From Psychrobacter cryohalolentis K5 (GTDB lineage Bacteria; Pseudomonadota; Gammaproteobacteria; Pseudomonadales; Moraxellaceae), in NCBI RefSeq assembly GCF_000013905.1, contig NC_007968.1, positions 1 through 32,000 of the forward strand: 32,000 bases of DNA, given 5' to 3'. Within the stretch, counting starts at the first letter, position 1, and every line of letters begins with the position of its first letter. Below are positions 1,343-26,923 of this stretch, piece after piece. The position numbers were made by a program, and so were the translations under genes. The notes under the pieces were generated by a model, which saw only the letters and a program-made list of their open reading frames with translations, had not been told where the DNA came from and ran no database searches.

Positions 1343-1424
1343 CTGATTAGATTAGAGTATACCCAAGAGAACCAATGAAACCGAATCTTTCTATCCAACG
1401 TCATTTGTCATAACGCCCGTTACG
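1343..1424 (+). repeat. Site a: GTATAC core (1357-1362) plus inward arm 1363-1424; inverted partner is site g
   Basis: GAGTATACCCAAGAGAACCAATGAAACCGAATCTTTCTATCCAACGTCATTT... Positions 1378-1424 match the reverse complement of 19213-19259 at about 41 of 47 positions (hand count). The shared AGAACCAATG (1368-1377 / rc 19266-19275) lies across a 6-nt indel. Confidence 0.7.
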
Positions 1425-1547
1425 TTTTTCAGCATAAATCACTTAGACATAGCGATTAACTGTATGTCATTATTCATCTTGAAATCAATCTCTTATTCTA
1501 ATTAATAAATAGTCGGCAGAAAAACTGACGCATTTTAGGGTTTTATT

Positions 1548-2117
1548 ATGAAAAAACTATCAACATTGAAGAAACCTCTTGTAATGGCACTGAGTGTCGC
1601 AAGCTTTAGCATTGCCTCTGTTTCAGCCAGTCAAGCAGCCCCTGCTGTGAATGAGGTAACGGCAGCGTCACAGAGTAAGATTAGCCTAGAGCAAGCGCTG
1701 GTCCTTGCTAATAAAGCGGTAAAAGGCGATATCATCAGTGCAGACTTTGATCAAGAATATCGTAACGCAAATAGCCATTACGATATCAACATCGTTACCA
1801 ACAATAATGAACAAGAAGTCAGCGTGAATGCCAATACAGGCAAGGTCACGAAAGGGGACACAGAGCGTTTAGACAAAGAAGACTTGGCAGAATATAAGGC
1901 TATGAAACAATCAAAAGTAAGTTTGTCTCAAGCCATAAAAAAAGCAAACCAAACGCTGAAAGGGAAAGTACTGGAAGTAGGATTCGATATGGATTTTGGC
2001 AAGCCTGTCTACAAAGTTGAAATTGGTAAAGGCAATCAGATTCATAAAGTTGTTGTCGACAGCATGACTGGTAAGATTACGCGCAGTCAGGTAAGCGACG
2101 TTGATCGTGATGATTAA
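1548..2117 (+). CDS. Secreted protein with two PepSY domains
   Basis: There is a signal peptide (MKKLSTLKKPLVMALSVASFSIASVSASQA). Two PepSY-like repeats are present: ISLEQALVLANKAVKGDIISADFD and VSLSQAIKKANQTLKGKVLEVGFD...YKVEI. Confidence 0.7.
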   Translation: MKKLSTLKKPLVMALSVASFSIASVSASQAAPAVNEVTAASQSKISLEQALVLANKAVKGDIISADFDQEYRNANSHYDINIVTNNNEQEVSVNANTGKVTKGDTERLDKEDLAEYKAMKQSKVSLSQAIKKANQTLKGKVLEVGFDMDFGKPVYKVEIGKGNQIHKVVVDSMTGKITRSQVSDVDRDD

Positions 2118-2158
2118 TTACTGATACCTTGTATTGCATATAGCCTCAAATATTAAAA

Positions 2159-2196
2159 AGCCCTAAGCTACTTTCTCAAGTGGCTTGGGGCTTTTT
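2159..2196 (+). terminator. Rho-independent terminator after the PepSY gene
   Basis: AGCCCTAAGC...GCTTGGGGCT forms a stem and is followed by TTTTT. Confidence 0.6.
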
Positions 2197-2571
2197 AATG
2201 GCCACTCTGATTTAATAGCAAGTCTAAATAAACAATTGTTGGTATCTAGTGTGGGTTCATATTTGTGGATTGTTGGCCGTTTTTTGTTTGTATGGTAAGA
2301 GATAGTTTTACTCGTTTACGAGTCACTTATCACATTAATGATGATAGTTACTTGCTAGTAAACGTTACTATATTAGTCACATTGTCAGTACAGCTACTAT
2401 AGTCACTGCACTACACAAGAGTTGTATTTTGGATATATATCATAAAATAATTTAGATAAGCCATTTTATACGACAAGTCAGATGAAGATTATTTTAAGAA
2501 CTAGCTTATTGGCTTAGCGGATTGTTCAATATTGAACTACCCCAAATGTATCGGAGGCAAAACTACTCGGG

Positions 2572-2661
2572 TCGATTCCTTATATGTATACCCCAAGATA
2601 ACCAATCAGGCGCTTTCACTGCTCCGGTACCCTAGTGAGGACTTGAACCTTAGGCTGTGAG
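2572..2661 (+). repeat. Site b: GTATAC core (2586-2591) plus inward arm of about 70 nt; inverted partner is site f
   Basis: GTATACCCCAAGATAACCAAT...TTCACTGCTCCGGTACCCTAGTGAGGACTTGAACCTTAGGCTGTGAG matches the reverse complement of 14545-14620, with one 7-nt indel. Confidence 0.7.
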
Positions 2662-2764
2662 ATATTGCTATTAGTACTCTAAATCTATTTAGATAAAATC
2701 AGTGTACATAGCAATGTAACTTTCAAAATGTAAGGTTGAGTATACAAACCGGGACGAATAATAA

Positions 2765-3208
2765 TTATTCAAGATTATCTTTTACTTTGAAAGGTTCTGA
2801 GAATTGTAGAATTAAGAAATTAACAACTGATAATATAATCGCTATCTCATAACGTCCATAAGCAACAGAGATGCCGATAGCAGCGGTATTCCATAAACTT
2901 GCAGCTGTCGCAGTGCCTTTTACCGTATTATCACCTTTAAAAATAGCCCCACCACCGATAAAGCCCATGCCCGTAATAATTGCGTACATGATTCTCGCTT
3001 CGGGTTCTGCTGCACCTCCATGATAGATATCGACAGCCACTAGCATGAAAGCACAGGATGCAATACTGACTAATGGGAAAGTTCTGAGTCCTGCACCCTT
3101 ATCTTTCATCTCACGATTAAGCGCAATCGGTAGGGAAAGCACGAAGGCAATTGCTAATTGAATTAGGTGATATACCATTAATTTTAAGTTTAAATCAAAT
3201 TCAAACAT
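2765..3208 (-). CDS. mgtC: MgtC/SapB family membrane protein
   Basis: GLRTFPLVSIASCAFM...GMGFIGGGAIF...GTATAASLWNTAAIGISVAYG is the characteristic MgtC core. Confidence 0.8.
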   Translation of the reverse strand: MFEFDLNLKLMVYHLIQLAIAFVLSLPIALNREMKDKGAGLRTFPLVSIASCAFMLVAVDIYHGGAAEPEARIMYAIITGMGFIGGGAIFKGDNTVKGTATAASLWNTAAIGISVAYGRYEIAIILSVVNFLILQFSEPFKVKDNLE

Positions 3209-3264
3209 GGTTTATTGCACTCTTTAAAAGAAGGTTAAATGAACAGGGGTGATTATCGTTATTT

Positions 3265-4188
3265 TTAATGCGTCGAAGATGACTTATTACTGCGTAATTT
3301 ACCAATCATGGTGACAATAGCCACGACAATAACACCGACGGCTAAACCTACCAACGCATTTAAGAGCATGGTTGTCACACTTCCAAATATGCCAGTTAGG
3401 TGCGCTAAGTCTTCCACTTCATGATGCAAAAAACTGATCCCGTGCACTAAGATACCGCCGCCCACTAGAAACATAGCTAATGTCCCAGCAATCGATAGAA
3501 ACTTCATCAGCTTTGGTGCCGCAGACAATAAAATCCCACCTATTTTCTGCTTTGCACCGTTCGTCTGTTTCATTAGGTAAAGACCTAAATCATCCATTTT
3601 AACGATACCCGCTACTAAGCCATAAACGCCTACTGTAATGCCAATAGCAATAATAGACAGCATCACGCTCTTCTCTAAAAGCGTCGCTCCAACTGCTGAG
3701 CCGAGTGCAATTACGATAATTTCAGCCGATAGAATAAAGTCGGTGCGCACCGCACCTTTGATTTTGTCCTTTTCAAAAGCAACCAAATCAATCGTCTCAT
3801 CAGCATTGGCACGTAGACGGGCTATTTGTTCTTCATCGTGAGGTAAGATATGTGGCCAGAACTTATGAATGATTTTTTCAGCACCCTCATAAGCCAAATA
3901 GACACCTCCGCACATCAATAAAAACGTGACTAATGGCGGGTAGATGGCACTAATCAGCAACGCTAACGGCACTAATATAAGCTTGTTAACGAATGAGCCT
4001 TTGGCAACGGCCCAAACTACTGGCAGCTCACGGTCTGCTTTAACACCTGAAACTTGCTCTGCATTAAGGGCTAGATCATCGCCCAATACACCCGCCGTTT
4101 TTTTAACGGCAACCTTGGTCATAAGTGACACATCATCTAATATCACACTGATGTCATCAAGCAAGGTTAATAAACTGGCTCCTGCCAT
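3265..4188 (-). CDS. DUF808 (YedI-like) inner membrane protein
   Basis: The N-terminus MAGASLLTLLDDISVILDDVSLMTKVAVKKTAGVLGDDLALNAEQV is typical of DUF808. Multiple TM segments are present. Confidence 0.7.
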   Translation of the reverse strand: MAGASLLTLLDDISVILDDVSLMTKVAVKKTAGVLGDDLALNAEQVSGVKADRELPVVWAVAKGSFVNKLILVPLALLISAIYPPLVTFLLMCGGVYLAYEGAEKIIHKFWPHILPHDEEQIARLRANADETIDLVAFEKDKIKGAVRTDFILSAEIIVIALGSAVGATLLEKSVMLSIIAIGITVGVYGLVAGIVKMDDLGLYLMKQTNGAKQKIGGILLSAAPKLMKFLSIAGTLAMFLVGGGILVHGISFLHHEVEDLAHLTGIFGSVTTMLLNALVGLAVGVIVVAIVTMIGKLRSNKSSSTH

Positions 4189-4247
4189 GTGTGCTCCTTT
4201 GCGTCTATTTATATAAATTAATTGATAGGTTTTTTATTAAAGTCTTT

Positions 4248-4772
4248 CTAATGTTTTTTGGTGTCACCGACAATCTTATCCATCAAAGCAAATAACAGGC
4301 CTGACAGTACAAACGTCATATGGATAATCACTTTCCACATCAATCTATCAGCATCACCTTCGCTCATCTCTTTAGGTATATCCATAAATGATTTAAGAAG
4401 ATCAATCGCAGAAATGGCAACGATGGCACCAATCACTTTGAGTTTTAGCCCAGAGAAATTGATTTTCCCCATCCATTCAGGGCGGTCCTCATGATCTCCG
4501 GTATCAATTTTTGAGACAAAAATCTCATAACCACTAAATATGATGATAAGCAATAAACTTGCGACTAATGACATGTCGATAAGCGCCAACGTACCAACGA
4601 TGACATCGGCTTCAGATGCACTGAACACATGAGTCGTCATATGCCACAGCTCTTGAAAAAACTTAATAAATAATAAAATGATACCGAGCACCAATCCCAA
4701 ATAGAACGGTGCTAGCAGCCAACGACTATTAAATATGGTTTTTTCTAATCTTTGTTCAGCTTTCTTCAGCAT
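4248..4772 (-). CDS. UPF0114 (YqhA-like) membrane protein
   Basis: The start RLEKTIFNSRWLLAPFYLGLVLGI is typical of the YqhA family, and the 174-aa size fits. Confidence 0.65.
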   Translation of the reverse strand: MLKKAEQRLEKTIFNSRWLLAPFYLGLVLGIILLFIKFFQELWHMTTHVFSASEADVIVGTLALIDMSLVASLLLIIIFSGYEIFVSKIDTGDHEDRPEWMGKINFSGLKLKVIGAIVAISAIDLLKSFMDIPKEMSEGDADRLMWKVIIHMTFVLSGLLFALMDKIVGDTKKH

Positions 4773-4845
4773 TTGTGTCTCTTGTTGTGGGTAATATAAA
4801 TGTTTAAATATGATGTCTATTATTAGGTAATAAAAAGCAATGCAT

Positions 4846-4891
4846 GTTAATAACAGGTTATACCAATTATTTGGTATAACCTGTTATTAAC
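4846..4891 (-). terminator. Perfect 21-bp inverted repeat with a 4-nt loop between the DUF475 and UPF0114 genes
   Basis: GTTAATAACAGGTTATACCAA-TTAT-TTGGTATAACCTGTTATTAAC lies just downstream of the 4935 stop on the minus strand. Confidence 0.45.
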
Positions 4892-4934
4892 GATATTCTA
4901 AGATAATAATTTTTTGCTTTACATTCTCTACACT

Positions 4935-5999
4935 CTAAGCAGTGAGTTTTGCCTGTTGCTTACGATGTTTCAGTGAAGCAAGCAGTGCCCAACCAATAAA
5001 GGCAATACCGATCAGTCCCGTAATAAGCTCTGGCACATGGAATTTCACCGATAACAACATGATGATGGCTAAAGCGCCGATGGCATAATGCGCGCCGTGT
5101 TCAAGATAGACAAACTCATCAAGCGTGCCTTTATCAACTAAGAAGATAGTCATCGAACGCACAAACATCGCACCGATTGCAAGACCCAGCATAATCACGA
5201 TAACGTCATTGGTAATCGCAAATGCGCCAATCACGCCATCGAAACTGAATGAAGCATCAAGGACTTCTAAGTATAAGAAACCGATAATACCGCCTTTCAT
5301 AATGGCGCTAGTTGCAGCACCAGTACTATTACCTTGAGCGTCTAGTTCTTCTTCAAGATCACCTTCAAGCATACCAGAAACCACTTGTACGCCAAGGTAT
5401 ACCAAGATACCCCAAATACCCGCAATCAATACCGCTGCTGACTGCTCAGGGTTAGCAAATGATACCGCAATCATCAACACGATAAGCGCCACAAACACGC
5501 TCATGGCATCGACTTTACCCAGTTTTGCCAAGCGGCTCTCGAGCCAATCAAACCAATGTACTTCTTTATCATCAAAGATAAAGTTCAAGAACACCAATAG
5601 TAAGAAGATACCACCAAAGGCTGAGATTTCAGCATGGTGTGCCATTAGTCTTGCCGAGTATTCTTTAGGATCGTTCAATGCCAAATCTATAACTTGCATC
5701 ATACCAAGATCAGCGGTAACCGCGACGATGACAATAGGGAATACCAAACGCATACCGAAGACGGCGATTAAAATACCGACGGTTAAAAATATCTTTTTCC
5801 AAAACTCATCCCAGCCTTTAAGAACTGAGGCATTGACCACCGCATTATCGAATGATAATGAGATTTCCATGACGGCCAAAATCGCGGTAATAGATAAGGT
5901 TGCGATCAAACCACCCATCCCGCCATGTGAATATCCCCACCATGCCGCGATCGCTAATGCAATGGCGGTAAAGATGAAGTCTAAATAAAAATGTCTCAT
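4935..5999 (-). CDS. DUF475 (TerC-related) integral membrane protein
   Basis: LSFDNAVVNASVL and a second ASFSFDGVIGAFAIT motif show the TerC-like duplicated architecture. Confidence 0.65.
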   Translation of the reverse strand: MRHFYLDFIFTAIALAIAAWWGYSHGGMGGLIATLSITAILAVMEISLSFDNAVVNASVLKGWDEFWKKIFLTVGILIAVFGMRLVFPIVIVAVTADLGMMQVIDLALNDPKEYSARLMAHHAEISAFGGIFLLLVFLNFIFDDKEVHWFDWLESRLAKLGKVDAMSVFVALIVLMIAVSFANPEQSAAVLIAGIWGILVYLGVQVVSGMLEGDLEEELDAQGNSTGAATSAIMKGGIIGFLYLEVLDASFSFDGVIGAFAITNDVIVIMLGLAIGAMFVRSMTIFLVDKGTLDEFVYLEHGAHYAIGALAIIMLLSVKFHVPELITGLIGIAFIGWALLASLKHRKQQAKLTA

Positions 6000-6299
6000 G
6001 ACACATCCTGTCTGGTTGCGTAAAGCTAAGTGTATCTACTAAAAGTATGAGGCATAAAAAAAGTGGCTATCGTGAGCCACTTCCCTATGTGATTTTTAAT
6101 AGAATATAAAGTATTTTTTTAAAATATTCTATGCAGAATTGTCACTGTATTTTTTATGCTTTGGCGATTAAAAACACCTTATATTTTAATAATAATTCTA
6201 AGTATAAGATACTGATCAAATAGAGTTATGCTGCGTAGTTTAGCTTCTGTATTAGCATTACTTAGAAAAATGCGAATTCCACTCACAAATAAAATTTTG

Positions 6300-6331
6300 C
6301 TATTTTGGGTATACCCTAGCGATACCAGTAA
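6300..6331 (+). repeat. Site c: GGGTATACCC (6307-6316) plus arm TAGCGATACCAGTAA; inverted partner is the left arm of the dyad at 8961-8982
   Basis: GGGTATACCCTAGCGATACCAGTAA compares with the reverse complement GTATACCCCAACTGAACCAGTAA. Confidence 0.6.
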
Positions 6332-6451
6332 AACAAACCATAATTTGAGCTAATGAGTTACCTAGAATGAACAATGTTAACAGGACTATTAATTATCTTA
6401 AATGGTTGCCTTTTGGCTACTAGCCCATGTTATGTCTAATAATGATAGAAA

Positions 6452-8224: not shown

Positions 8225-8384
8225 GTTTCATTAAGCCCTATTTTATAATACTAAGCTGTTTTAACCAGAACGGGAGTAACATTTACCCATTGCTTTCAAC
8301 GGTTAATTATTGTTTTAACATACTCCTTAAGAATAACTGAGCTATGCTTGTATGTTGGTAAATATCTTATTATATTTTCGCTAA

Positions 8385-8756
8385 ATGAGTCATATTATGA
8401 AAAAAGAGACACTGACAGGACTGTCTATTATTACATTTGCAGCATTTTATATTTGGATTCAAAATGGCAGTAACCCATCTGATAAAAAAAGAAACACTGA
8501 ACTCGAACAAGCTCAAAAAACATCAAAGATTGCATTGCTAACGAAGTGCCAGAAAGCAGTACAGCCCATGCTTAAAGGTTTTAAATCTATGGACATTAAA
8601 CGAAAAAACACAGACTACAGACGATTAAATAATGGTAACTTTGAAGTCATAACACATTACTACGCTGAAGATAGCTTGGATGCGGCCCCGCTCATTATCG
8701 TCGACTGCTTATTCGATAAAGATGGCAGTTTATTAGAAACAGGGCAGGTTAAATAA
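8385..8756 (+). CDS. Hypothetical membrane-anchored protein (alternative start at 8397, MKKETL)
   Basis: The ORF has one N-terminal hydrophobic helix. I recognise no family. Confidence 0.4.
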   Translation: MSHIMKKETLTGLSIITFAAFYIWIQNGSNPSDKKRNTELEQAQKTSKIALLTKCQKAVQPMLKGFKSMDIKRKNTDYRRLNNGNFEVITHYYAEDSLDAAPLIIVDCLFDKDGSLLETGQVK

Positions 8757-8965
8757 CTTCCAGTATAGCTATGGAGCTGTAGTAGATAAGACTTTAAATA
8801 ACACACCTTTTTCTAAAATTTTTTAAGCTGCTCATGATGCTGGCCATTTGCTCAGCCAGTTTTTTAATATCAGATTGAGTAGTCATTGCTTATTCTCCTG
8901 TTATTGAATTATAAGCAGTTGCACAATTTTTAGGAAAAGCTTTTCAATCTGGAATTAAATTACTG

Positions 8966-8993
8966 GTTCAGTTGGGGTATACCCGAGCGGAAC
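8966..8993. repeat. 28-bp dyad GTTCAGTTGGGGTATACCCGAGCGGAAC (shared end of pairs c/c-prime and d/e)
   Basis: The arms GTTCAGTTGGGGTA and GTTCCGCTCGGGTA (rc) match at 11 of 14 positions around a central TA. Confidence 0.7.
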
Positions 8994-9076
8994 CGGCTAA
9001 CTCACCCTTCAAACCCATTGATAGACCATTTAAAATGGACTAAAGCAGTAAAACCACTTCAAGCGTACTATTATTA
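8974..9076 (+). repeat. Site d: imperfect inverted repeat of about 100 bp, partner of site e
   Basis: The ungapped alignment of 8977-9076 with the reverse complement of 13185-13284 is roughly two thirds identical by hand count. Conserved blocks include AGACCA.TTAAAA and AACCACTT. Confidence 0.7.
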
Positions 9077-9089
9077 GCATATTTTTAAT

Positions 9090-9118
9090 AAAAAAAAGCC
9101 AACCATAAGAGGGTGGCT
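9090..9118 (-). terminator. Terminator downstream of higA
   Basis: The GCCAACC...GGTGGC stem is followed on the minus strand by a run of T (A8 on the plus strand). Confidence 0.5.
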
Positions 9119-9148
9119 TATTAGCGTTTGAATCACTCGAATTCATTA

Positions 9149-9451
9149 TTACACATTAAAGCCTATGTGCTTCCCTGTTGGCAGCTCAACATCGATACGA
9201 AGCTTACCACCCATAGCTTCAACATATTTTTTCATGGTCGATATTTTAAGATCATTGCCGCGATTTTCTATAGCAGACAATGAAGGCTGTTTAATACCCA
9301 TGGTTTGAGCCAGCTCTTTTTGAGAGATCTCTAACTCTTCACGGATACGAGACAGCTGGTTTTCTAAAAGCAGTTGCTCTGCCAGTTGTTTAATACGCGC
9401 TTGGCTATCCAAAGAGCGCTCAGCTAACATCTCTTGTAATGTCTTAGTCAT
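9149..9451 (-). CDS. higA: HigA-type antitoxin, XRE-family HTH
   Basis: SQKELAQTMGIKQPSLSAIENRGNDLKISTMKKYVEAMGGKL is an XRE HTH. The gene starts 1 nt downstream of the toxin gene. Confidence 0.8.
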   Translation of the reverse strand: MTKTLQEMLAERSLDSQARIKQLAEQLLLENQLSRIREELEISQKELAQTMGIKQPSLSAIENRGNDLKISTMKKYVEAMGGKLRIDVELPTGKHIGFNV

Positions 9452-9452
9452 G

Positions 9453-9800
9453 TTATGGATCTCCTAAAGTTCTGAGGTGACACTCATACTGTTGGTCTGC
9501 AGTGGCTAGCATTTCTTTATAAAAACGCTTTCTATTACCCTTATCACCAATACAAAGCACAATCGCTTGCCGCTTTGGGTCAAAGGCAAAAAAGGCTCTG
9601 AGTGGCTTGCCTCTGTGCTGAATACGCAACTCTTTCATGTTGGTAAACTTTGAATCATACACCGTATCTACTAAAGGGCGACCCAAGCTTGGACCTTGCT
9701 GTTCTAAAACCACCAAAGCTGCCAGTACTTTTTCTTGCGTTGATTCGTCTTGCTGATCAAACCATTGGTTGAACAGCTCTGTTGTGATGACAGTCCACAT
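9453..9800 (-). CDS. higB: HigB-like RelE/ParE-superfamily toxin (Gp49-like)
   Basis: LVDTVYDSKFTNMKELRIQHRGKPLRAFFAFDPKRQAIVLCIGDKG is typical of the family. The toxin-first order is as in higBA. Confidence 0.8.
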   Translation of the reverse strand: MWTVITTELFNQWFDQQDESTQEKVLAALVVLEQQGPSLGRPLVDTVYDSKFTNMKELRIQHRGKPLRAFFAFDPKRQAIVLCIGDKGNRKRFYKEMLATADQQYECHLRTLGDP

Positions 9801-9812
9801 ATAAAAACCAAT

Positions 9813-9832
9813 ATATAGATTATAGTCTATAT
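9813..9832. promoter_or_regulatory. Putative higBA operator palindrome
   Basis: ATATAGA-ttatag-TCTATAT lies immediately upstream of the higB start. Confidence 0.35.
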
Positions 9833-9904
9833 TATACAGCTAATCGAGACAGTCTGCAATTATAGTGAGCAGCTCTTAACAGCCTATGCTTAGTGGCGAC
9901 CATA

Positions 9905-10015
9905 TTTTCTATCGTTAACCTATACCCAAAACATAAAACCTCTAAACGATAATTTAGCTATCATTTGACTTATATTAGTAATTAAACGATAGTAATATCT
10001 TGCTATTATCAATGA
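9905..10015 (+). promoter_or_regulatory. Putative res region of the intact resolvase (three A[CT]GATA[AG]-type dyads)
   Basis: CTATCGTT (9909), AACGATAATTTAGCTATCATT (9946-9966) and ACGATAGTAATATCTTGCTATTATC (9987-10010) lie directly upstream of the recombinase gene. Confidence 0.35.
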
Positions 10016-10052
10016 ACATTAATTATTGAGTCTAAGTAATAGAGGTAGCGTT

Positions 10053-10649
10053 ATGACCGTTCGTATTTATGTGAGAGCAAGCACTAAGGATCAAGACGCT
10101 AAGAGAGCCTTGTCTGACTTGATTAACTTTAGCCAAAGCTATGATGATAACCATGTGGAGTACGTTGAACATTTCAGTGGTACGAAACTTGATAGACCCG
10201 CACTTACTCTATTACTCAGTGACGCTGAAGAAGGCGATATTCTGCTGGTTGAAAGCGTGGATAGATTAAGCCGATTATCTCAAGATGATTTTTCGATTCT
10301 AAAGCAGCGTATTAAAGATAAGGGCTTACGATTGGTGGTGGCTGATCTACCAACCACACATACGATGAGTGACGGTATGACAGGTGAGATCCTAAAAGTG
10401 ATTAACGATATGCTGATCGATTTATTAGCGACCATGGCAAAGCTTGATAATGACAAGCGTAGAGAGCGCATTAAACAAGGATTGGCCAACAGTGGCTATA
10501 AACCCACTGGTAAGAAAGCCAATACAGTGAAACACAATCGTATTAGAGCATTGGCCAGTCAAAACAATATGACAAAAGAAGAGATCGCTAAGGCGGTTGG
10601 TGTTGGCGTAGCTACCGTTTATCGTGTCTTAAAGCAGGTTAATAGCTGA
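10053..10649 (+). CDS. Small serine recombinase (resolvase/invertase family) with a C-terminal HTH
   Basis: IYVRASTKDQD carries the catalytic Ser, and VESVDRLSRL is present. The C-terminus EIAKAVGVGVATVYRVL is an HTH. I prefer the ATG at 10053 with the AGAGG RBS over the TTG at 10026. Confidence 0.85.
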   Translation: MTVRIYVRASTKDQDAKRALSDLINFSQSYDDNHVEYVEHFSGTKLDRPALTLLLSDAEEGDILLVESVDRLSRLSQDDFSILKQRIKDKGLRLVVADLPTTHTMSDGMTGEILKVINDMLIDLLATMAKLDNDKRRERIKQGLANSGYKPTGKKANTVKHNRIRALASQNNMTKEEIAKAVGVGVATVYRVLKQVNS

Positions 10650-10816
10650 GGTGTTTTAAATATCGACTCAACGTGATCTTTGGGCTTTATCTAAAGGCAT
10701 CACAACGTCATATAAAAATCGATTTAATGCAATAATGCTTCATTATAATCATTATATTGCATTCATAATTGTTTTTACGCAAAATGGCTTATCTATAATC
10801 GCTTGAGCCACTCATA

Positions 10817-12397: not shown

Positions 12398-12605
12398 AAC
12401 AAACCCTGCTATACGCAGGAAAGTCTGCCTTGATAATCAAGCTCAAGCTAGTATCAGTATCATCGTTGCAATAATGATTCGTTTATAAAAGATTCGGCTA
12501 ACATACCGTAGCCTAAAGCGTAATTAGTATTTTTCTTGAGCCTATTTAATTTAATGAAATACTGATAGGAGGCTATTTTGATTTGACAAGCATGAATATA
12601 TATAA

Positions 12606-13178
12606 TTAAAATAATTTTGAGTATTTGAGTATTTGAGTATTTGAGTATTTGAGTATTTGAGTATTTGAGTATTTGAGTATTTGAGTATTTGAGTATTTGA
12701 GTATTTGAGTATTTACCTTAGTACAAGCAATACATTGCATCTGACGGTTAAGTCCATCCTCATAGTCCTTTTTAACAATAGCAGCGAGCATATCAAGCAT
12801 AATCGAATTAATGGTCTGTAATATGCTGATCATAAATTCAATGCTACTCTCAGATTGAGGCGTCATACAAGAGATCGGCAGCTCTTTTGATACGATAGAG
12901 AGCTTTTTTTCTGATAGCATTCTTTTGAGCGTATCCCAATCAGCTTGGTTCAAACGCGCCAAGCGATCAATCTGCTCAACCAAGATAACATCGGCCTTAT
13001 GAGCATCTTCAATCAGCTGCATAAGCGTGGGTCGCACCAAGGTAGCGCCTGATTCGTTTTAGACATAGAAGGCAGCAATTTTGTGGCCATGATCGTTGGC
13101 AAATGCTATGAGTTCGCTTTTGGCACGTTTAGCATCTTGTTCTTTGGTAGACGCTCGTAGATACGCTCTGATAAACAT
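12606..13178 (-). pseudogene. Decayed serine recombinase gene
   Basis: The minus strand from the ATG at 13178 reads MFIRAYLRASTKEQDAKRAKSELIAFANDHGHKIAAFYV. An in-frame TAA follows (13059-13061), and then NESGATLVRPTLMQLIEDA...VEQIDRLARL. The C-terminal HTH is missing and is replaced by the read-through of the 8-bp repeat array. Confidence 0.75.
12619..12714. repeat. Perfect tandem array (GAGTATTT)x12, i.e. ACTC boxes with AAAT spacers on the other strand; candidate parH-like centromere
   Basis: I counted twelve units directly, starting at 12619 with an exact 8-bp period. Confidence 0.9.
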
Positions 13179-13184
13179 AAACAC

Positions 13185-13300
13185 CTAAAATAGTCTGTTA
13201 TAAGTGGTTCCATTATACCAGTCTGTTTTAAGTGGTCTGTTAATAGGTTTGAAGGCCGAAATAACTGGTTCCCTTGGGGTATACTTTTAAGAACTGACTA
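13185..13300 (-). repeat. Site e: GTATAC core (13279-13284), inverted partner of site d; res-like region upstream of the decayed resolvase
   Basis: It aligns with site d as described there. Three direct GTCTGTT motifs lie at 13193, 13221 and 13235. The dyad centre is about 100 bp from the pseudogene ATG at 13178. Confidence 0.65.
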
Positions 13301-13753
13301 AGATTTATCATTTTTTAGCAGTTGCTCCGCTATTCTTTCTTCCCATTCAGTTTTAGAAAGACGACCTGTATTTTGCATCTTTATATCTTTTAAAACCTTA
13401 TGATGAGCATCAAGGTGGTTAATCATATTGATAATATTATTTTGCTGACGCTTTGTTTCAGCGAGCTTTTGGGTAATAACACTCAATTGTTTATCAACAT
13501 CAATCGTGCCATCGTAATAATCATTCAGGAATTCTTTAAATTCATTCAGATTAAACCCGATGGCTTGCGCACTCTTAATCATTTCAATACGCTCAACACA
13601 TTCTGGATGAAATTCAGTGTACAGTCTTGAGCCTGCTTGGCATTTGCGAGATTTCAATAATCCCATTTCATAGTAATGGCGAACCGTATCTTTGGTGGTG
13701 TTAGCTTGCGCTGCTAACGCCCCTATTAATAAAAAAGATGAGTGTGACGGCAT
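13298..13753 (-). CDS. MerR-family transcriptional regulator
   Basis: IGALAAQANTTKDTVRHYYEMGLL is a MerR HTH. The ATG at 13753 is preceded by GGGAGG, and the TTG at 13768 is less likely. Confidence 0.8.
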   Translation of the reverse strand: MPSHSSFLLIGALAAQANTTKDTVRHYYEMGLLKSRKCQAGSRLYTEFHPECVERIEMIKSAQAIGFNLNEFKEFLNDYYDGTIDVDKQLSVITQKLAETKRQQNNIINMINHLDAHHKVLKDIKMQNTGRLSKTEWEERIAEQLLKNDKS

Positions 13754-13825
13754 AGCATAACCTCCCAAAAATGAACTTCATTTAGCTTTTACTCTTATGA
13801 CCTATGTAGAAGCACTATAGATAAA

Positions 13826-14272
13826 TTATTCAGCTAACATTACTTCTAGCTTGGGTTTAATAATAAGTGACACAATAACTGAAAACACGATGCCGATCGG
13901 TAAGGCTGCCAGTAAAGTGGTAGCCCAAACAGCAGCAAGAGAGTTCCAATCAGAGAAACCATTGGTGTTAATGGTAGTAATCACTGCCATAATGGATTCC
14001 ATTGTCACTGCCATACATAAGCCAAAAATAACGTTCATTTTAACTTTTGAGATATTGGGCAATATTGCCGCTAAAGCTTTATGAATCAGCATGGCAATAA
14101 TGCCACCAATGGGTGCAATGAAAACCACGCATAGCGCAAAAGAGCTTATCCAAGACGCTAAAAACCTCTCATTAAACTCTATACTTTTCCAGGTCATGAC
14201 AAAAGTGAGTGTGCCACCAATAACGATGACTATGCTGAGAATGATACCTATTTTTTTAAGAAGTTTAGGCAC
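13826..14272 (-). CDS. Small 4-TM membrane protein, possibly DUF2798-like
   Basis: It has two tandem two-helix units and lies immediately upstream of the MerR gene on the same strand. The family call is from memory only. Confidence 0.5.
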   Translation of the reverse strand: MPKLLKKIGIILSIVIVIGGTLTFVMTWKSIEFNERFLASWISSFALCVVFIAPIGGIIAMLIHKALAAILPNISKVKMNVIFGLCMAVTMESIMAVITTINTNGFSDWNSLAAVWATTLLAALPIGIVFSVIVSLIIKPKLEVMLAE

Positions 14273-14544
14273 TGGACTATCCGTACTAGATGAAGGGCAG
14301 GTAGTCTAAGCTTATTTTTTCGATAAGTGCAGTCTTGTTCTTCAAGATTTTTTCTGTACAAACAACAGAAACGAGTAGAGCAGAAGGTAAGATGGAAAAA
14401 TACCTCATCTAGAGATTTTATAGTTATTAAACTCATATCTAACACTAGCAATTCGATACCTGTATAGCGCACCGATCACAAACAGAATATGTTAGGTACA
14501 CTACGAAGTACACTGTGACTATTTAAGTGCGCAAAACCATTGAT

Positions 14545-14620
14545 ACCATTAGCTTACAGCCGAAGATTCAAGTCCTCACTAGGGAACCGAACCAGTGAAA
14601 TTGGTTTGTCATAGGCATAC
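14545..14620 (-). repeat. Site f: degenerate core GCATAC (14615-14620), inverted partner of site b
   Basis: The reverse complement reads GTATGCCTATGACAAACCAATTTCACTGGTTCGGTTCCCTAGTGAGGACTTGAATCTTCGGCTGTAAG. Confidence 0.7.
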
Positions 14621-14635
14621 TTACAATAGATTATA

Positions 14636-14836
14636 GTGCAATGGGAAGATAGAACTAAGACAATTAAAGAGCTGATTAAAGAACTCCAAAGTTTTGAGGA
14701 TCAAAACTTGATTGTTATGATAACTAATGATGAAGGTGAAACATTTAACTCGGTAAAGTTGGTTAGCAAAGGGTTTGTAGCTAATAAAGATGATCCTGAT
14801 AAATATAAGAAAATTTATTGTGCTTTACACTTCTAA
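14636..14836 (+). CDS. Hypothetical small protein (GTG start)
   Basis: This rests on the ORF only. There is no recognisable family and the start context is weak. Confidence 0.25.
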   Translation: MQWEDRTKTIKELIKELQSFEDQNLIVMITNDEGETFNSVKLVSKGFVANKDDPDKYKKIYCALHF

Positions 14837-15049
14837 GCTTTAAGACCATCTAAGACAGTTAGTTAGTTTTTTAATCCCTAAACCCATGAAAATCGGTTGG
14901 GGGGTGATTTTTTTGCCGTGTGCAGAGAAAAGCAAGTCAAAGATTTTTTTTACTAGCTGCTTTAGCGATAACCATTATTTAAGATAATCTCGTTAAAGCA
15001 GCTATGACCTAACCTTTAAATGTTAAAAGTTAAGGGTAAATTTGAAAAA

Positions 15050-16213
15050 TTAAGGAGTTAAAATGACTTTACGACATTCTTCTTCACGCTTTTCGAAAAT
15101 TTCATAACCTTTAGCAGCGTCAGACAAATTCATACGGTGAGTAATAATAGCTTCAGGTGATAAATCACCATTTTCAATATACTCTAATAATTGTGGTAGA
15201 TACTTGTGTACATGGGTTTGGCCCATTTTGAAAGTAAGCCCTTTATCAAAAGCATCACCAAATAAGAAACCATGAATGGGTCCTGCATACACACCCGGAA
15301 CACTAACGACCCCGCCACGACGCACAGCTGCAATACATTGACGTAAAGCTGCACCACTTGACCCTTCAATTTTTAAATTGGTCATTATTGTTTCTAGCAT
15401 GCTGCCTTTGGCTTCAAAGCCAATCGCATCGATAACGCTGTCAACGCCGCGATGCCCTTTGGTCTGTTCAATAATAAATTCAGCAGCATCTACCTTATCG
15501 AAATTAACCGGAATAGCACCGTAGGTATCTTTCGCGTACTGCAAACGGTAGTCATTATGATCTACCACGAAGATCTGCTCAGCGCCTAACATTTTGGCAC
15601 AAGCTGCTGATAACAACCCCACAGGACCCGCACCATAAATAGCTACGGTTGAACCTTTAGTAATATTGGCATTAGTCACCGCCTGCCAAGCAGTCGGTAA
15701 AATATCTGATAAAAATAAAACCTTCTCATCTGACAGTGAGCCATTTACTTTGAACGGATTAAAATTACCTTTAGGAACCCGTACAAATTCTGCTTGTCCA
15801 CCAGGAATCCCACCATATAAATGGCTAAAACCAAATAAAGCAGCCGGTGGCGGAATTATTTTTTTATTAATAGCAGCGCCTGGGCCTGTATTTGTAGTCT
15901 CACAAGCGGACATTAGGTCATGCTGACAGAAAAAGCAGTTACCACATGCAATAACAAAAGGAATAACAACTCTATCGCCTTTTTTAACAGCAGTGACTTC
16001 AGAGCCTACTTCTTCAACCACGCCCATAAACTCATGACCGAAGATATCGCCTTCCTCGGTTGCAGGCATTTTGCCACGATACAGGTGTAAATCTGAGCCA
16101 CAAATTGCAGTCGCAGTCACACGTAAAATAACATCATCTTTTTCTTGCAGTTTAGGCTCTGGGACATTGTCCACTCGCACATCTTTAGCACCGTGGTAAG
16201 TTAAAGCACGCAT
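15050..16213 (-). CDS. Zinc-dependent alcohol/formaldehyde dehydrogenase family oxidoreductase (MDR superfamily)
   Basis: Supporting motifs are [24 protein letters not shown], the structural-Zn cysteines CGNCFFC and the Rossmann motif [10 protein letters not shown]. Confidence 0.85.
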
Positions 16214-16423
16214 AATTTCTCCAATTAAGCAAAGATTGCAAAATCTCGATAAACAATAATCTGTGATAATACAAGATGAAAGTTATTAGAATCAGTGGTT
16301 TATGTTATCTAAGTTAAGTATTACTCAATTATATTAGCACCTTGAAAAACAAGATTTATAATCAACGTGTGTTAAAAAGGTTGCGTGTTGTAAGTAAAAA
16401 ATTGTAGTGGTCAACTAATTTAG

Positions 16424-16663
16424 GACACTAATAAAATTCAAACCTACATCGCCATTCCTTATAAACCTGAGTCGAGAACGGATAATAATTATAAGCGTTG
16501 GGGCAACTTTTATGACCGCCAAGATCTGTTAGTAGGTGACGAATTATGGCAGCTTGTGTCAGGTGGTCAGTTTTCACTCAATGATATGGTTGATATTTTT
16601 AGAGAGGTCGGTGCTGAGTCTAAAGAAGATATCGAGAAGGCTTTAAATACAGATCATTTTTGA
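16424..16663 (+). pseudogene. 3-prime remnant of a gene, possibly a type II restriction endonuclease (TdeIII-like C-terminus)
   Basis: The frame is open from the stop at 16421 and has no start codon. It reads ...IAIPYKPESRTDNNYKRWGNFYDRQDLLVGDELWQLVSGGQFSLNDMVDIFREVG...*. The resemblance is from memory. Confidence 0.3.
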
Positions 16664-16820
16664 ATCAACAGCTTAGTTATATTAAATCAGTAAATGAATC
16701 CGTCACTCTGCTCGTCTACAATGAAAGCTTCATAATCTCATTAAAAAACTATTGTTTCTCTAGGGAATTTAGAACATATAAAAAATGCCCCCCTACTACT
16801 TGACGTAATAAGGGGGGGTA

Positions 16821-16896
16821 TAGAGCCTTTCCTAAAAAGTGTGTAACTATCATTTAGATTGTAGAAGTACTTACACGAAATTTAGGAAAGGCTCTA
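16821..16896. repeat. 16-bp perfect inverted repeat TAGAGCCTTTCCTAAA / TTTAGGAAAGGCTCTA with a 44-nt spacer
   Basis: I read it directly at 16821-16836 and 16881-16896. It is adjacent to the ColE2-type origin. Confidence 0.7.
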
Positions 16897-16917
16897 ATAA
16901 AAAGATGCCGGAAGAAT

Positions 16918-16955
16918 ACCCCAAACGGCTGTTATCTGATTTAGGCTTATCCAGT
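16918..16955 (-). other. ColE2-type replication origin
   Basis: The minus strand of 16921-16952 reads GGATAAGCCTAAATCAGATAACAGCCGTTTGG. This is close to my recollection of the ColE2-P9 ori core (AGATAAGCCTTATCAGATAACAGCGCC). It lies just 3-prime of the rep stop, as in ColE2. Confidence 0.6.
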
Positions 16956-16963
16956 GCAACTTT

Positions 16964-17845
16964 TTAAAGCTTACCTAGTTTCTTATGATTATAATAAGTT
17001 CTTCTCGAAATACCTAAGTCTTCCCAAGGCTTCATAGATTGCTCTGACGTAGCTATAGGCTTACGTTTAGATACCTTACCGCCTTTACTACCCTTAAGTG
17101 CCTGCCGATAAATAAACTCATTATAGTGATAAGCATCACGCTTCCAACAGTATTTAGCAATGCTTTTTGCAGTAGCCTTGATTTCTGAGTACGGTAACGG
17201 CTCTGAAAACATCATATTCACGCTTTGAGCGTGCTTAAGTACTGAACTGTACCATTGATCCCAAGTCTTGCCTCGATGCTCTCTAATGGCAGAATAAGCC
17301 CAATGGCGAACGGTATCGAACAGGGAGCAGTTCCTTCCAAGCCCATATTCTTTCTCGTTAGACGTTAAAGGTCTGAGATCTACGAACTCCGCAAGATAAT
17401 TTAGCTCATAGGCTTCTTTCGTCCATACTTCGGTACGCCAATGTTCGTGCAGGGGGTTTTTGGTGATGAAATTGGTATAACCAACGTCTGCGCGACTTGC
17501 TCTGACAAGCCCTGCTTGTATCTTAGCGAGATAATCTAAGGCTTTACGACTGCCATGCTCACTGGTACAAACAGGCGTTTTTAGCTCATAGACGATATGG
17601 GCGTGTCCGTTTGAGGGGTTTTGGCTTGTCCACCGTGGCGGTGGTAGGTATTCTTCTGCCCATCGCATAGCGCCATGCTCATGATCAATGTCTAAGCAGA
17701 TAAAATGAGTCATGCAAGGGGGGTTGTGCTGGATGTACCGCATTTTGACGGCAGTTTGCCTAGGACGAATGACAAGATTACCTAAACCATCGGTGCAATA
17801 GGGCTTGTAGGGGAGTGTTTCGTATATTTCCGGTAGTAATAACAT
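16964..17845 (-). CDS. ColE2/ColE3-type plasmid replication initiator (Rep primase)
   Basis: LPYKPYCTD, NPSNGHAHIVY, YGLGRNCSLFD and the C-terminal KPWEDLGISRRTYY parallel ColE2 Rep. I prefer the ATG at 17845 by homology, but the ORF is open back to a GTG at 17920. Confidence 0.85.
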   Translation of the reverse strand: MLLLPEIYETLPYKPYCTDGLGNLVIRPRQTAVKMRYIQHNPPCMTHFICLDIDHEHGAMRWAEEYLPPPRWTSQNPSNGHAHIVYELKTPVCTSEHGSRKALDYLAKIQAGLVRASRADVGYTNFITKNPLHEHWRTEVWTKEAYELNYLAEFVDLRPLTSNEKEYGLGRNCSLFDTVRHWAYSAIREHRGKTWDQWYSSVLKHAQSVNMMFSEPLPYSEIKATAKSIAKYCWKRDAYHYNEFIYRQALKGSKGGKVSKRKPIATSEQSMKPWEDLGISRRTYYNHKKLGKL

Positions 17846-17935
17846 CACGCACACTTGTATTGGTGCGCCTGCTGATATAAAATGTCCGTATCGAAAAATG
17901 GGTTTTATATCTGCTGACACAGATTAAAATTCATC

Positions 17936-17967
17936 TAACCCCCAGAGATTGCCGTCTCTGGGGGTTA
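17936..17967. promoter_or_regulatory. 13-bp perfect stem-loop in the rep leader; candidate antisense-RNA (ColE2 RNA I-like) copy-control element
   Basis: TAACCCCCAGAGA-ttgccg-TCTCTGGGGGTTA lies about 90 nt upstream of the rep ATG. Confidence 0.4.
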
Positions 17968-18137
17968 GTCGTTTCTAGCACATGAGTTTACGCTCTCATC
18001 GCACTTTCGTCAATTGTAAAATCCTCGTAAAGCCACGCCACTTAAGGGGCGCAAAAGTTATACCTACGTTATATTACATGGCATAATTGGGCTTTAATAA
18101 GACTGTCTGGAGCGTTAGTTTTTATATACGCTGATCT

Positions 18138-18169
18138 AAAAAAGAGCCCTTTAGTCGGGGCTCTTTTTT
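18138..18169. terminator. Bidirectional terminator-like hairpin
   Basis: A-run, GAGCCC-tttagtc-GGGGCTC, then T-run. Confidence 0.55.
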
Positions 18170-18179
18170 GTTAATTACT

Positions 18180-19159
18180 ACCCCACTCTCAACTTGAAAT
18201 AAGCAAATCAAACTGAAGAGGCGGATTACCAAGTTTTTTGTTGAGTACAAAGCACAGATTGTGTGAAAGAATCTTACGAATCAATCGATGAGACAAATGC
18301 CATAAATCTCTTGCTCGTACCCTTTGTATATTAAATCGTTCTGATAGCTGACCAATGACTGTTTCAACGATACGGCGGGCTTTCATTAGCCGCCTTACCA
18401 CAGGTTTGGGTCTATCCTCTTTCATGTTGGCTCTGAGTGGCGTTTGTAAATCCACGCCTTGAGCGTCGTAGTACGATGTCAGACTAGGGCTGATATACCC
18501 TTTATCAGCGCCAAGCAGCCCATGAATATGAGTGGTGATTTCTGGGGCAACCGCTCTTTCATCAACATTGGCAGGAGCAAAGGTAAAGCCTTTAATCATG
18601 CCCGATAAGTTAACAAGCAAATGGCCTTCAAAGCCATAGTACCTCTCTTGCTTAGCGGCACAGTAGCTAAAAGCTGCTAAGTCTTGATAATTCTTATGCC
18701 GATAAGCGCGTCCATAATGACAGACGGGTATCGGAAAGCCATCCATAAAATGAATGTTGTCACGGCCTTCAATTTGACTGACTTTATCTTGTATCTGCTG
18801 TTTGACTTGCCACAGATTGGCGCAGTGCTTTGCGAAGTTAGGGTATGAGCCGATGGCTGGAAACCAGTCTTGCCAATGCTGGGTAAAGTATTGCCAAATT
18901 TGTTTTTCTTGATCTAGGTGTAAAAATTCACCGACCATCTCCATGCAAATAACCTCAGGATCACTTAGCTTTGGCGCGTAACCTGCACTTCGCAAGGGTT
19001 TGGTGACGACTATTTTGTAATATTGCTCTACCATTAAATAGATATTGATGATAAATTCGTCTATGGGCATCTCACAACTCCATTGTATTCTTGGTCGAAA
19101 ACAATAGATTAGTGAGGTGCTCTTCTTTTTTCAATCACTTTCGAAGTTGAGAGTCGGGT
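18180..19159 (-). mobile_element. IS982-family insertion sequence, intact, with an 8-bp target-site duplication
   Basis: IRL is ACCCCACTCTCAACTTGAAA (18180-18199) and the reverse complement of IRR is ACCCGACTCTCAACTTCGAAA (19139-19159). The flanking direct repeat TAATTACT lies at 18172-18179 and 19160-19167. Confidence 0.85.
18189..19070 (-). CDS. IS982-family transposase (DDE)
   Basis: The 293-aa size, LSDPEVICMEMVGEFL and GADKGYIS are typical of the IS982 family. Confidence 0.85.
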   Translation of the reverse strand: MPIDEFIINIYLMVEQYYKIVVTKPLRSAGYAPKLSDPEVICMEMVGEFLHLDQEKQIWQYFTQHWQDWFPAIGSYPNFAKHCANLWQVKQQIQDKVSQIEGRDNIHFMDGFPIPVCHYGRAYRHKNYQDLAAFSYCAAKQERYYGFEGHLLVNLSGMIKGFTFAPANVDERAVAPEITTHIHGLLGADKGYISPSLTSYYDAQGVDLQTPLRANMKEDRPKPVVRRLMKARRIVETVIGQLSERFNIQRVRARDLWHLSHRLIRKILSHNLCFVLNKKLGNPPLQFDLLISS

Positions 19160-19169
19160 TAATTACTGT

Positions 19170-19287
19170 AAGTAATTATGATGGTTCCGTATAAGGAAAC
19201 CCTCGTTGCTTCCATAACAGACGTTATAAAAAATGACGTTGGATAGAAGGATTCGGTTTCATTAGCATTGGTTCTAGCGCCAGACTT
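19170..19287 (-). repeat. Site g: inverted partner of site a (tip degenerate, GTCTGG instead of GTATAC)
   Basis: The reverse complement reads ...AGAACCAATGCTAATGAAACCGAATCCTTCTATCCAACGTCATTTTTTATAACGTCTGTTATGG. A GTCTGTTAT motif and TATACGGAACCA lie further in. Confidence 0.6.
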
Positions 19288-20270: not shown

Positions 20271-20393
20271 ACTAACTGCCCATTAAAATTCGTAGGTGAA
20301 CTTCTTATTCAGGCCAGGATCACAAAGGGTATTTCTATCTTCTAAAGAATAATAATTGCTAGCATCAAAGCAAATGTTACCATCTATGCAATT

Positions 20394-20461: not shown

Positions 20462-20479
20462 AAATACGGAATCATTTTC

Positions 20480-22599: not shown

Positions 22600-22604
22600 G
22601 CGAC

Positions 22605-26858: not shown

Positions 26859-26923
26859 AATTATTTTATTTGTGTAGCTTTATAGAGTATAGTACTTATA
26901 TTGTTTACTATAGAGAGTATAAA

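Follow-up and report, generated by a model that had tools for sequence, protein, structure and literature searches.

GTATAC-centred sites at module boundaries of Psychrobacter cryohalolentis plasmid 1 as candidate recombination sites of a small serine recombinase family

Plasmid 1 of Psychrobacter cryohalolentis K5 raises the question of what delimits its cargo modules. The first 32,000 bp of this plasmid (NC_007968.1, forward strand; referred to as the window) contain a family of short sites, centred on the hexamer GTATAC, which lie in inverted pairs around groups of genes. A sequence-only reading of the window had offered two explanations. A serine recombinase might use the sites for crossover and thereby shuffle the modules in the manner of pdif modules, or the sites might be ends of non-autonomous transposons. 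The analysis reported here favours the former: the sites probably serve a family of small serine recombinases of the resolvase type as recombination sites; two members, rec1 and rec2, are found in the window. An enzyme-linked res-like unit, palindromic sites, clustered breakpoints, switching of partners and shared hexamers all speak for it. What survives of the transposon explanation is its form (inverted ends and a TATA-centred target that is regenerated), and a DDE transposase was neither found nor needed.

The window is 100% identical to NZ_CP022042.2 (41,221 bp; window 1446 corresponds to record position 1). BLAST detects related segments in 55 Psychrobacter, 8 Acinetobacter and 8 Moraxella plasmids. 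In this report related loci carry L-numbers; L001 is pA3H11, L002 pA19H3, L126 pSIT1, L128 pPAMC27889, L010 an Aeromonas locus, L064 an alphaproteobacterial metagenome-assembled genome (MAG) and L157 the Acinetobacter baumannii plasmid pAbPK1a.

Anatomy of the sites and of the res-like unit

The eight site-ends described earlier (a, b, c, c', d, e, f and g) are all present at the reported places, with the hexamers of c and of c'/d positioned as in Table 1. Their common tip consists of the hexamer, CC, 5–6 nt and (G/T/A)AACC(A/G). The leading GGGG that had been included in the shared terminus is not general, because the bases preceding the hexamer vary; the hexamer of end a, for instance, directly follows GA and not GG. 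The proposed pairs and their pair-specific similarity are borne out by alignment: a/g match over 49 nt at 90% without gaps (57/72 with gaps), b/f over 58 nt at 84% (65/82 with gaps) and d/e over 96 nt at 71% (71/105), and c/c' agree in 19 of the first 23 nt (39/55 overall).

A chance origin of the motif is excluded. In the window GGTATACC occurs five times (0.22 expected), GGGTATACCC with up to one mismatch four times (0.23 expected) and the arm motif with up to two mismatches 16 times (5.45 expected). The strict pattern of hexamer plus arm has a composition-based expectation of ~0.02; it occurs five times in the 32 kb, at b, c, c', d and e. In the window this strict pattern is seen at no other place.

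The e/d-type end is a conserved unit of ~93 bp, as deduced from 39 aligned non-redundant ends. Its consensus is GTATACCCcAa.GGAACCAg, followed by ~20 variable nt and ATTAAyAGACyACTtAAAAyAGACTg.tAtaaTgGAACCAcTTAtAacagAct. The distal part is built of four head-to-tail 14-bp units (AGACCACTTAAAAC, AGACTGGTATAATG, GAACCACTTATAAC and AGACT...) of the type AGACyAyTtAAAAy, and the 14-bp periodicity is also present in L064 and L142. The ATG of a recombinase of ~210 aa is located at about +101 of the e-type end in the window, where the gene is disrupted, and in L001, L002, L055, L056, L010 and L064. A search for serine recombinases next to such sites, as had been proposed, found a Resolvase-type gene ~100 bp downstream in Psychrobacter, Acinetobacter, Aeromonas and the alphaproteobacterial MAG. 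Across these taxa a spacer and four putative accessory repeats appear to separate site I from the gene; the a, b/f and c arms have none. The relatives were collected by scanning a genome collection with the 14-base pattern GTATACCCNANNNNAACCA. Of the 120 loci among the matches listed, most are chance hits and at least ~20 are true relatives, nearly all of the latter from Psychrobacter and the others from Acinetobacter, an Aeromonas and the MAG.

In L142 the palindrome GGTTCGTTTTGG-GTATAC-CCCAAGCGAACC lies 116 bp upstream of a rec1 homologue (MLTRAYLRASTNEQD...), and a recognisable second arm is also found in L064 and L010. Because of these palindromes the hexamer is taken to be the centre of an ordinary two-armed site I in other taxa. 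Two inverted half-sites around a central 2 bp are present in L142, L064, L010 and at c'/d of the window; most Psychrobacter sites have one good arm. The outer flank mirrors the inner arm weakly, with G at -1 in 23/40 and T at -4/-5 in 23/40 of the aligned entries (the 39 non-redundant e-type ends and one false positive). In the same 40 entries the hexamer counts are G34 T38 A40 T38 A39 C32/T7. The T at position 6 is specific to the right inverted repeat (IRR) and moves with that arm. Degenerate cores (GCATAC, CTATAC, TTATAG, ATATGA, ACATAG and TCATAT) retain the central AT. Where arms abut, they always have one hexamer in common (c'/d of the window, L023, L025, L126, L128, L134, L143, L146 and L152). 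The centre of site I in the res of Tn3 and gamma-delta is TTATAA. These core features fit a serine recombinase that cuts with a 2-nt stagger at the central AT, and in most events one partner would have contributed only a poor half-site.

The recombinase gene rec1 is part of a discrete unit of 820 bp, which comprises a left inverted repeat (IRL) of ~93 bp, rec1 and an inverted IRR of ~90 bp (tip GTATAT or GTATAA), and it is the IRR that overlaps the rec1 stop codon. BLAST finds the unit in at least 11 Psychrobacter plasmids with 92–100% identity, the alignments running from position 1–3 to 818–820, and the flanks of the copies are all different. The element-proximal half of the terminal hexamers is constant (TAC at the IRL, ATA at the IRR). 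The distal half varies with the flank (GTA, CTA or ATA on the left; TAC, TGA, TGC or TAG on the right). Repeats of this kind were noticed by Lasek et al. (2012), who found the gene of pP62BP1 flanked by 83-bp inverted repeats, recognized related sequences in a number of Psychrobacter replicons and gave neither a core nor a module model. Their 142-bp inverted-repeat pair is of the b/f type.

A res-like unit with a rec1 homologue also occurs at 1460–1570 of pAbPK1a and is found in ~15-kb plasmids of clinical A. baumannii. The unit there has a degenerate tip, GTAAAC, which overlaps a heme oxygenase gene at its 3' end; this gene belongs to a heme-uptake cluster with a TonB receptor.

The earlier remark that no cognate transposase is present needs a correction: TnpA is absent from the window, but likely cognate serine recombinases are there, namely the intact rec2 and a disrupted rec1. 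In rec2 the PF00239 domain spans residues 14–155 (7.5e-22) and HTH_7 residues 169–203. It is 44% identical to rec1, the fragment of which carries PF00239 and intact copies of which have 210 aa. The catalytic Resolvase domain is N-terminal and the helix-turn-helix (HTH) domain C-terminal in proteins of ~180–210 aa, as in small serine recombinases. The best solved relatives of rec1 are Sin (2r0q, 7e-9) and then the Tn3 resolvase.

The nonsense mutation and the 12 parS-like repeats of the window copy of rec1 were reported by Lasek et al. (2012). The replacement of the 3' end of the gene by these repeats implies recombination of a partition site into the recombinase gene. Palindromic TGAGTATATACTCA repeats related to the TTTGAGTA repeats of rec1 are located at 20391–20467, upstream of and overlapping the start of a ParA-type ATPase gene (20432–21115).

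An intact rec1 copy (93% identical) is present on a 467-kb contig of another P. cryohalolentis assembly, and action in trans is therefore conceivable. L137 is a 467-kb P. cryohalolentis contig on which, at 3560–4000, rec1 is intact but has lost most of its IRL to an IS630-family element; no more than 2.5 kb away there are an orphan e-type end and an end of the b/f type.

Homology breakpoints and switching of partners at the hexamer

All-against-all BLAST of 24 Psychrobacter loci yields 143 distinct homology breakpoints. Sixteen of them lie within 10 bp of a strict site (0.49 expected, maximum 5 in 1000 randomisations). For 32 loci, 24 of the 62 recurrent breakpoints are found within 6 bp of NTATAC or GTATAN (1.6 expected, maximum 6), and no enrichment is seen in these loci for the control hexamers GATATC, TTATAA and ATATAT. 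The earlier claim that homology changes partner at the centre of GTATAC is upheld by this clustering and fails at the off-hexamer breakpoints considered below.

A BLAST search for the same cassettes in other contexts shows identical flanks with different partners, switched at the hexamer. In pA3H11 an e-type end with intact rec1 adjoins, at the hexamer, the flank that lies to the left of c in the window (...GCTATTTT(G/A)G); in pA19H3 the right flank of f continues at GGGTATAC into a different module. The ccm-DUF3817 flank (...TTATC(G/C)TAGG directly before GTATAC) is followed by e, h and rec2-Fic in L125, by the rec1-pseudogene end in L124 and by an intact rec1 unit in L135 and L136. The flank ...GGCGGAAGTTTTTTAGG, again directly before GTATAC, leads into two different modules in L047 and L130. 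Inversely oriented sites bound modules in varied contexts, a feature by which pdif modules are recognized.

An uninterrupted target is present in pPAMC27889. The sequence AAACTTTGA-CTATAC-TGCGTTTATT (also given as AAACTTTGA-CTATAC-TGCGTTTATTATAGATG) is continuous there inside an IS3-like element. In L124 the left part of this target and CTATAC are followed by an e-type end. In L056 and L106 an inverted e-type end and GTATAC are followed by the right part of the target (97.5% identity over 996 bp). At the left junction the hexamer begins with C, as in the target, and at the right junction with G, as in the element; the exchange would accordingly lie inside the hexamer.

In pSIT1 (5043–6046) the carbenicillinase gene blaCARB-16 lies between ISPsma1 and an a-type arm and directly adjoins the inner side of that arm. 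This arm has one hexamer in common with an e-type end (double site 6041–6046). Arms of the a type are also found in L023 and L128.

Table 1. Positions of site-ends and recombinase genes in the window
Feature	Position	Strand	Description
End a	1357–1426	+	Hexamer GTATAC 1357–1362 and a-type arm (GTATACCCAAGAGAACCAATGAAACCGAATCTTTCTATCCAACGTCATTT...); opens the PepSY module
End b	2586–2745	+	Hexamer GTATAC 2586–2591 and long b/f-type end holding the conserved block GGTWCCCTAGTGAGGACTTGAA...; opens the MgtC-DUF808-TIGR00645-DUF475 module
End c	6309–6333	+	Hexamer GTATAC 6309–6314 and short arm CCTAGCGATACCAGTAAAA; left boundary of the K+/H+ antiporter (NhaP2) module
End c'	8958–8982	-	Short arm GTATACCCCAACTGAACCAGTAATT (minus-strand reading); hexamer 8977–8982 common to d (double site; c' arm on the left, d arm on the right)
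End d	8977–9072	+	Orphan ~93-bp res-like unit without a recombinase gene behind it; opens the HigA/HigB module
Site h	9905–10025	+	CTATAC 9920–9925; TATCGTT on the left, AAACGATA-type repeats downstream; res-like region of intact rec2
rec2	10026–10649 (annotated start 10053)	+	Intact small serine recombinase; N-terminal Resolvase domain, C-terminal HTH_7
rec1 pseudogene	12716–13178	-	In-frame stop; 3' end replaced by 12 TTTGAGTA repeats at 12616–12711
End e	13189–13284	-	~93-bp res-like unit (IRL type) upstream of rec1; hexamer 13279–13284
End f	14452–14620	-	Long b/f-type end; tip hexamer GCATAC 14615–14620; inner core-like GTATAG near 14461
18-nt piece TTACAATAGATTATAGTG	14621–14638	+	Between the f hexamer and the secondary core TTATAG (14631–14636)
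End g	19215–19287	-	a-type arm with degenerate tip CCAGAC 19280–19285; pairs with a; IS982 just inside

The gene content of the intervals is as described earlier, with one correction. Since the further site h lies ~100 bp upstream of the intact rec2, the d/e interval is composed of two modules, d-HigBA and h-rec2-Fic-rec1'-e, and is not a single cassette. BLAST matches begin at 9905–9920 of site h, which in L128 is joined to the flank of the ADH module at a secondary CTATA(A/C) core. The nested layout, in which c/c' and the adjoining d/e lie inside b/f and these inside a/g, is one valid description; the region is also a linear array of modules, and d/e is a composite. To the right of f, homology to L001 and L128 ends at the second core.

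The HigB/HigA pair (8977–10053) is situated between the orphan end d and the res-like region h of rec2. This placement recalls the toxin-antitoxin pairs next to res and tnpR in Tn3-family transposons (PMC7157771).

A conserved non-coding block of 100–170 nt (GGTTCGGTWCCCTAGTGAGGACTTGAA...CAGTGTACTTCATGGTGTAC...GATCGGTGCGCTATACAGG) is located beside the b and f sites, at 2614–2745 and 14452–14600, and recurs beside such sites of many Psychrobacter replicons (L002, L050, L087, L106, L123, L128, L131 and L133). Related copies diverge at internal hexamers, GTGTAC and CTATAC; L050 has a small open reading frame inserted between these. A structured RNA or a tRNA-derived att site was considered for this block and found no support (no Rfam match, no tRNA and 0 compensatory pairs).

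A recombination model and the explanations that compete with it

According to the favoured reading, the hexamer (G)TATA(C) would be the crossover region, with exchange at the nearly invariant central AT, and the inner arm CC-N5/6-(G)AACCA would be one recombinase half-site. The sites would be halves or wholes of site I for rec1-type and probably rec2-type enzymes; the a, b/f and c arms may belong to the same enzymes. Recombination between two sites, or between a site and a GTATAC-like sequence, would fuse, delete or invert DNA. A segment with two inward-facing ends could be excised as a circle with a complete two-armed site. A hexamer could then serve for its re-entry, with those at the tips of resident ends preferred. 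Entry at such a tip would create a double site with a shared hexamer such as c'/d (the tandem of c/c' and d), and entry inside a module would create nesting, as of b-f inside a-g. Altogether there is a substantial chance that the sites belong to a genuine resolvase-driven cassette system. A more specific version is somewhat less likely than not. The 820-bp unit might be an autonomous mobile element that employs a Sin/ParA-like resolvase as its 'transposase', and the a/g, b/f, c/c' and d-type ends might bound non-autonomous cassettes which this enzyme excises as circles and integrates at GTATAC. In that case Psychrobacter plasmids and chromosomes would harbour a cassette system that is driven by a serine recombinase, resembles pdif modules and integron cassettes in function and reaches into Acinetobacter.

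Several findings weigh against the favoured reading. Some breakpoints lie off the hexamer, namely b in L001 (homology from 2625), the left side of a in L002 (homology to 1294) and window position 16428. The occupied IS3 site is put together from a left and a right junction of different genomes. A circle or tandem junction of IRR' with IRL was found in neither of two metagenome-contig scans, the second of which gave canonical palindromic sites and further double sites. Recognisable accessory repeats are absent from ends a, b/f, c and g, and in most Psychrobacter sites the outer half lacks the GAACC motif. The rec1 copy of this plasmid is a pseudogene; current activity would therefore need rec2 or a chromosomal rec1. 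Furthermore, canonical small serine resolvases act only on two full, directly repeated res sites in one molecule (PMC2428073, PMC5698047). Integration, inversion and the use of poor half-sites would be atypical for such enzymes.

The main rival is plain multimer resolution with occasional shuffling. The e-type unit would be an ordinary res, the mosaic would result from rare exchange between two res sites or between res and a pseudo-site of co-resident replicons, followed by decay, and the inverted pairs and short arms would be relics. The rec1-type gene is indeed labelled as a multimer-resolution system throughout (Lasek 2012; PMC3632715; PMC10457243), and later papers from the laboratory of Lasek et al. 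keep this label. Homologues in other taxa have canonical two-armed sites upstream, the rec1 family is among the widespread plasmid resolvases, with matches in 1156 plasmid records, and shuffling by resolvases has been put forward in the literature (Kholodii 2001, as cited in PMC9501444). One res site suffices for resolution, however, and a second, inverted copy over the stop codon, kept as part of an exact 820-bp unit in at least 11 contexts, is not needed for it. Many orphan ends on contigs of 65 kb to 3.3 Mb, presumably chromosomal, the insertion into the IS3 gene at a bare CTATAC and the lack of a second half-site in most partners also speak against this explanation, which is considered unlikely. 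Homologous recombination between the dispersed 90–170-bp repeats would likewise place breakpoints at the repeat edges, where shared sequence stops, and repeats of 93–170 bp with 70–95% identity are long enough for occasional RecA-dependent exchange. It explains neither the original spread of repeats with precise hexamer tips nor exchange where a partner offers just a c-type arm of ~25 nt or a bare hexamer (L128/L124/L056; window 14631–14636), and a single hexamer common to unrelated arms and the invariance of the central AT are also left unexplained. This account is highly unlikely.

The remaining explanations invoke a different enzyme. Terminal inverted repeats of non-autonomous transposons (MITE-, TIME- or MIC-like), mobilized by a DDE transposase elsewhere in the host with GTATAC or TATA as the duplicated target, would account for the inverted ends, their pair-specific similarity beyond ~20 nt, the nested arrangement and the hexamer at both junctions. 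The loose resemblance of the tip to the inverted repeats of the Tn3 family (presumably GGGG...GAAC...) can also be counted in their favour. Members of that family are characterized by inverted repeats of ~38 bp starting with GGGG, a 5-bp target duplication and TnpA. Here, the pre-hexamer bases vary, so that there is no GGGG tip, a 5-bp duplication is not present, and TnpA is found neither in the window nor in the related loci; a Tn3-family transposon or a derivative (TIME/MIC) is thus rejected. Abutting ends have a single hexamer in common and not a tip each plus a duplication. In about 40 loci no DDE transposase is consistently adjacent, with just insertions of IS982, IS3 and IS630, and it is a serine recombinase gene with which the longest, res-like ends are linked. 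Given the sharing of hexamers, the variability of the bases before the tip and the absence of an associated transposase, a DDE origin is quite unlikely. Sites of the tyrosine recombinases XerC and XerD, as a Psychrobacter version of the Acinetobacter pdif with GTATAC as the 6-bp central region, would suit the geometry of a 6-bp centre between arms of ~12 bp and the bounding of modules by inversely oriented sites, the hallmark of pdif (PMC6449649). Yet the arms are unlike XerC and XerD boxes and unrelated to the 28-bp site of XerC box, 6-bp spacer and XerD box. The dif-like pattern matches at chance level in the window (3 matches, 2.55 expected) and at none of the module boundaries. No pdif sites were found in 31 Psychrobacter plasmids (Mindlin et al.). 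The sites, moreover, co-occur with serine recombinase genes and are conserved upstream of them, and the probability of a Xer identity is close to negligible.

Replicon context, implications and known systems

The a-g interval without its inserts amounts to about 5 kb and contains a ColE2-type rep gene (16964–17920) and the ADH gene. Segments related to the ADH part (L127, L128) or to the rep gene are found on small Psychrobacter plasmids; this suggests that the interval may be an integrated small plasmid. Two sets of iteron-like repeats are located at 24145–24215 and 26739–26858. The first consists of three copies of the 20-bp GAGAAAACAGTAAATGAAGC, resembling the iterons of pA3H11, and the second of five copies of the 22-bp ATAAAGCTACGTCTATCGACCC upstream of a Rep_3 gene (26870–27871). 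Together with the ColE2-type rep gene, the two sets suggest a multi-replicon cointegrate. A cluster of defence-type genes is situated outside the sites (21589–23591 and 28031–31911) and includes an AAA_15/AbiEii-like ATPase with its partner, GmrSD, a RiboL-PSP HEPN protein, and a BsuBI/PstI restriction enzyme with an Eco57I-type methylase. In the gap between TIGR00645 and DUF475 there is a perfect 21-nt inverted repeat with a 4-nt spacer (4846–4891; GTTAATAACAGGTTATACCAA and TTGGTATAACCTGTTATTAAC), which is kept in L001. It is not a module boundary and probably represents an operator.

If the favoured reading is correct, Psychrobacter and some other Moraxellaceae shuffle adaptive genes by means of a resolvase-type enzyme thought mainly to resolve plasmid dimers. 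The cargo would comprise ion transporters, toxin-antitoxin pairs and Fic proteins, and the carbenicillinase gene of pSIT1 abuts such a site. The Xer-dependent pdif modules of Acinetobacter would have a counterpart based on a serine recombinase, and the absence of pdif from Psychrobacter plasmids would be explained. The 83-bp and 142-bp inverted repeats left unexplained by Lasek et al. (2012) would be reinterpreted, and these replicons could be annotated with precise module boundaries. For genome engineering, a small serine recombinase from nature that accepts one-armed or minimal sites would also be of interest. Neither the enzyme class nor res-type sites nor mosaicism caused by resolvases is new, and the repeats themselves had been seen in 2012. 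In the literature search nothing was found on the GTATAC/central-AT core, one-armed sites delimiting modules, arrays with shared hexamers, the target evidence or the parallel to pdif, and a search for the motif string gave nothing relevant.

The layout of the e/d-type end resembles that of res sites of the Sin/beta type, and the beta recombinase both inverts and resolves. The Sin res is an 86-bp site composed of the crossover site I, a spacer for HU/IHF and a head-to-tail site II (PMC2428073). With about 90 bp, the e/d-type end appears to follow the same plan of crossover site, ~20-bp spacer and head-to-tail repeats. It has four head-to-tail 14-bp units, whereas Sin has one two-motif site II, and the protein similarity is distant (E = 7e-9). 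Shuffling by resolvases at res (Kholodii 2001; CinH-RS2 of Acinetobacter plasmids; hybrid Tn21-type transposons) likewise involves a small serine resolvase, a res-like site of ~100 bp and a switch of homology at the crossover of site I, which gives rise to mosaic plasmids in the same family (Moraxellaceae). The window-type sites differ in that they are mostly one-armed, form inverted pairs around modules and have bare GTATAC-like partners. In addition, rec1 lies between two inverted res-like ends in an exact 820-bp unit.

The modules of Acinetobacter delimited by pdif are similar in that toxin-antitoxin and transporter genes lie between inversely oriented short sites, neighbouring modules have a site in common and the same module occurs in different contexts. 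They depend on the tyrosine recombinases XerC and XerD in place of a serine recombinase; the window-type site is unrelated to dif, and some of its ends carry ~70 bp of putative accessory repeats. The invertible H segment of Salmonella also has a recombinase gene, hin, in a segment of ~1 kb between inverted crossover sites, the inner halves of which are conserved and the outer halves of which differ. Site sequence and length are different, and the rec1 unit is found in many different locations. Membership in the Hin/Gin/Mpi invertases is rejected, with scores of 46.9 and 26.7 for NF009949 (Mpi) against a cut-off of 272. In the IS607 family a small serine recombinase moves a short element via a circular intermediate into loosely defined targets. 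TnpA of IS607 has an N-terminal HTH and a C-terminal catalytic domain, and the element lacks terminal inverted repeats. The domain order of rec1 and rec2 is reversed, NF033518 scores 26.7 and 33 against a cut-off of 110, and the ends are inverted repeats of ~90 bp; the unit is thus not a member of the IS607 family.

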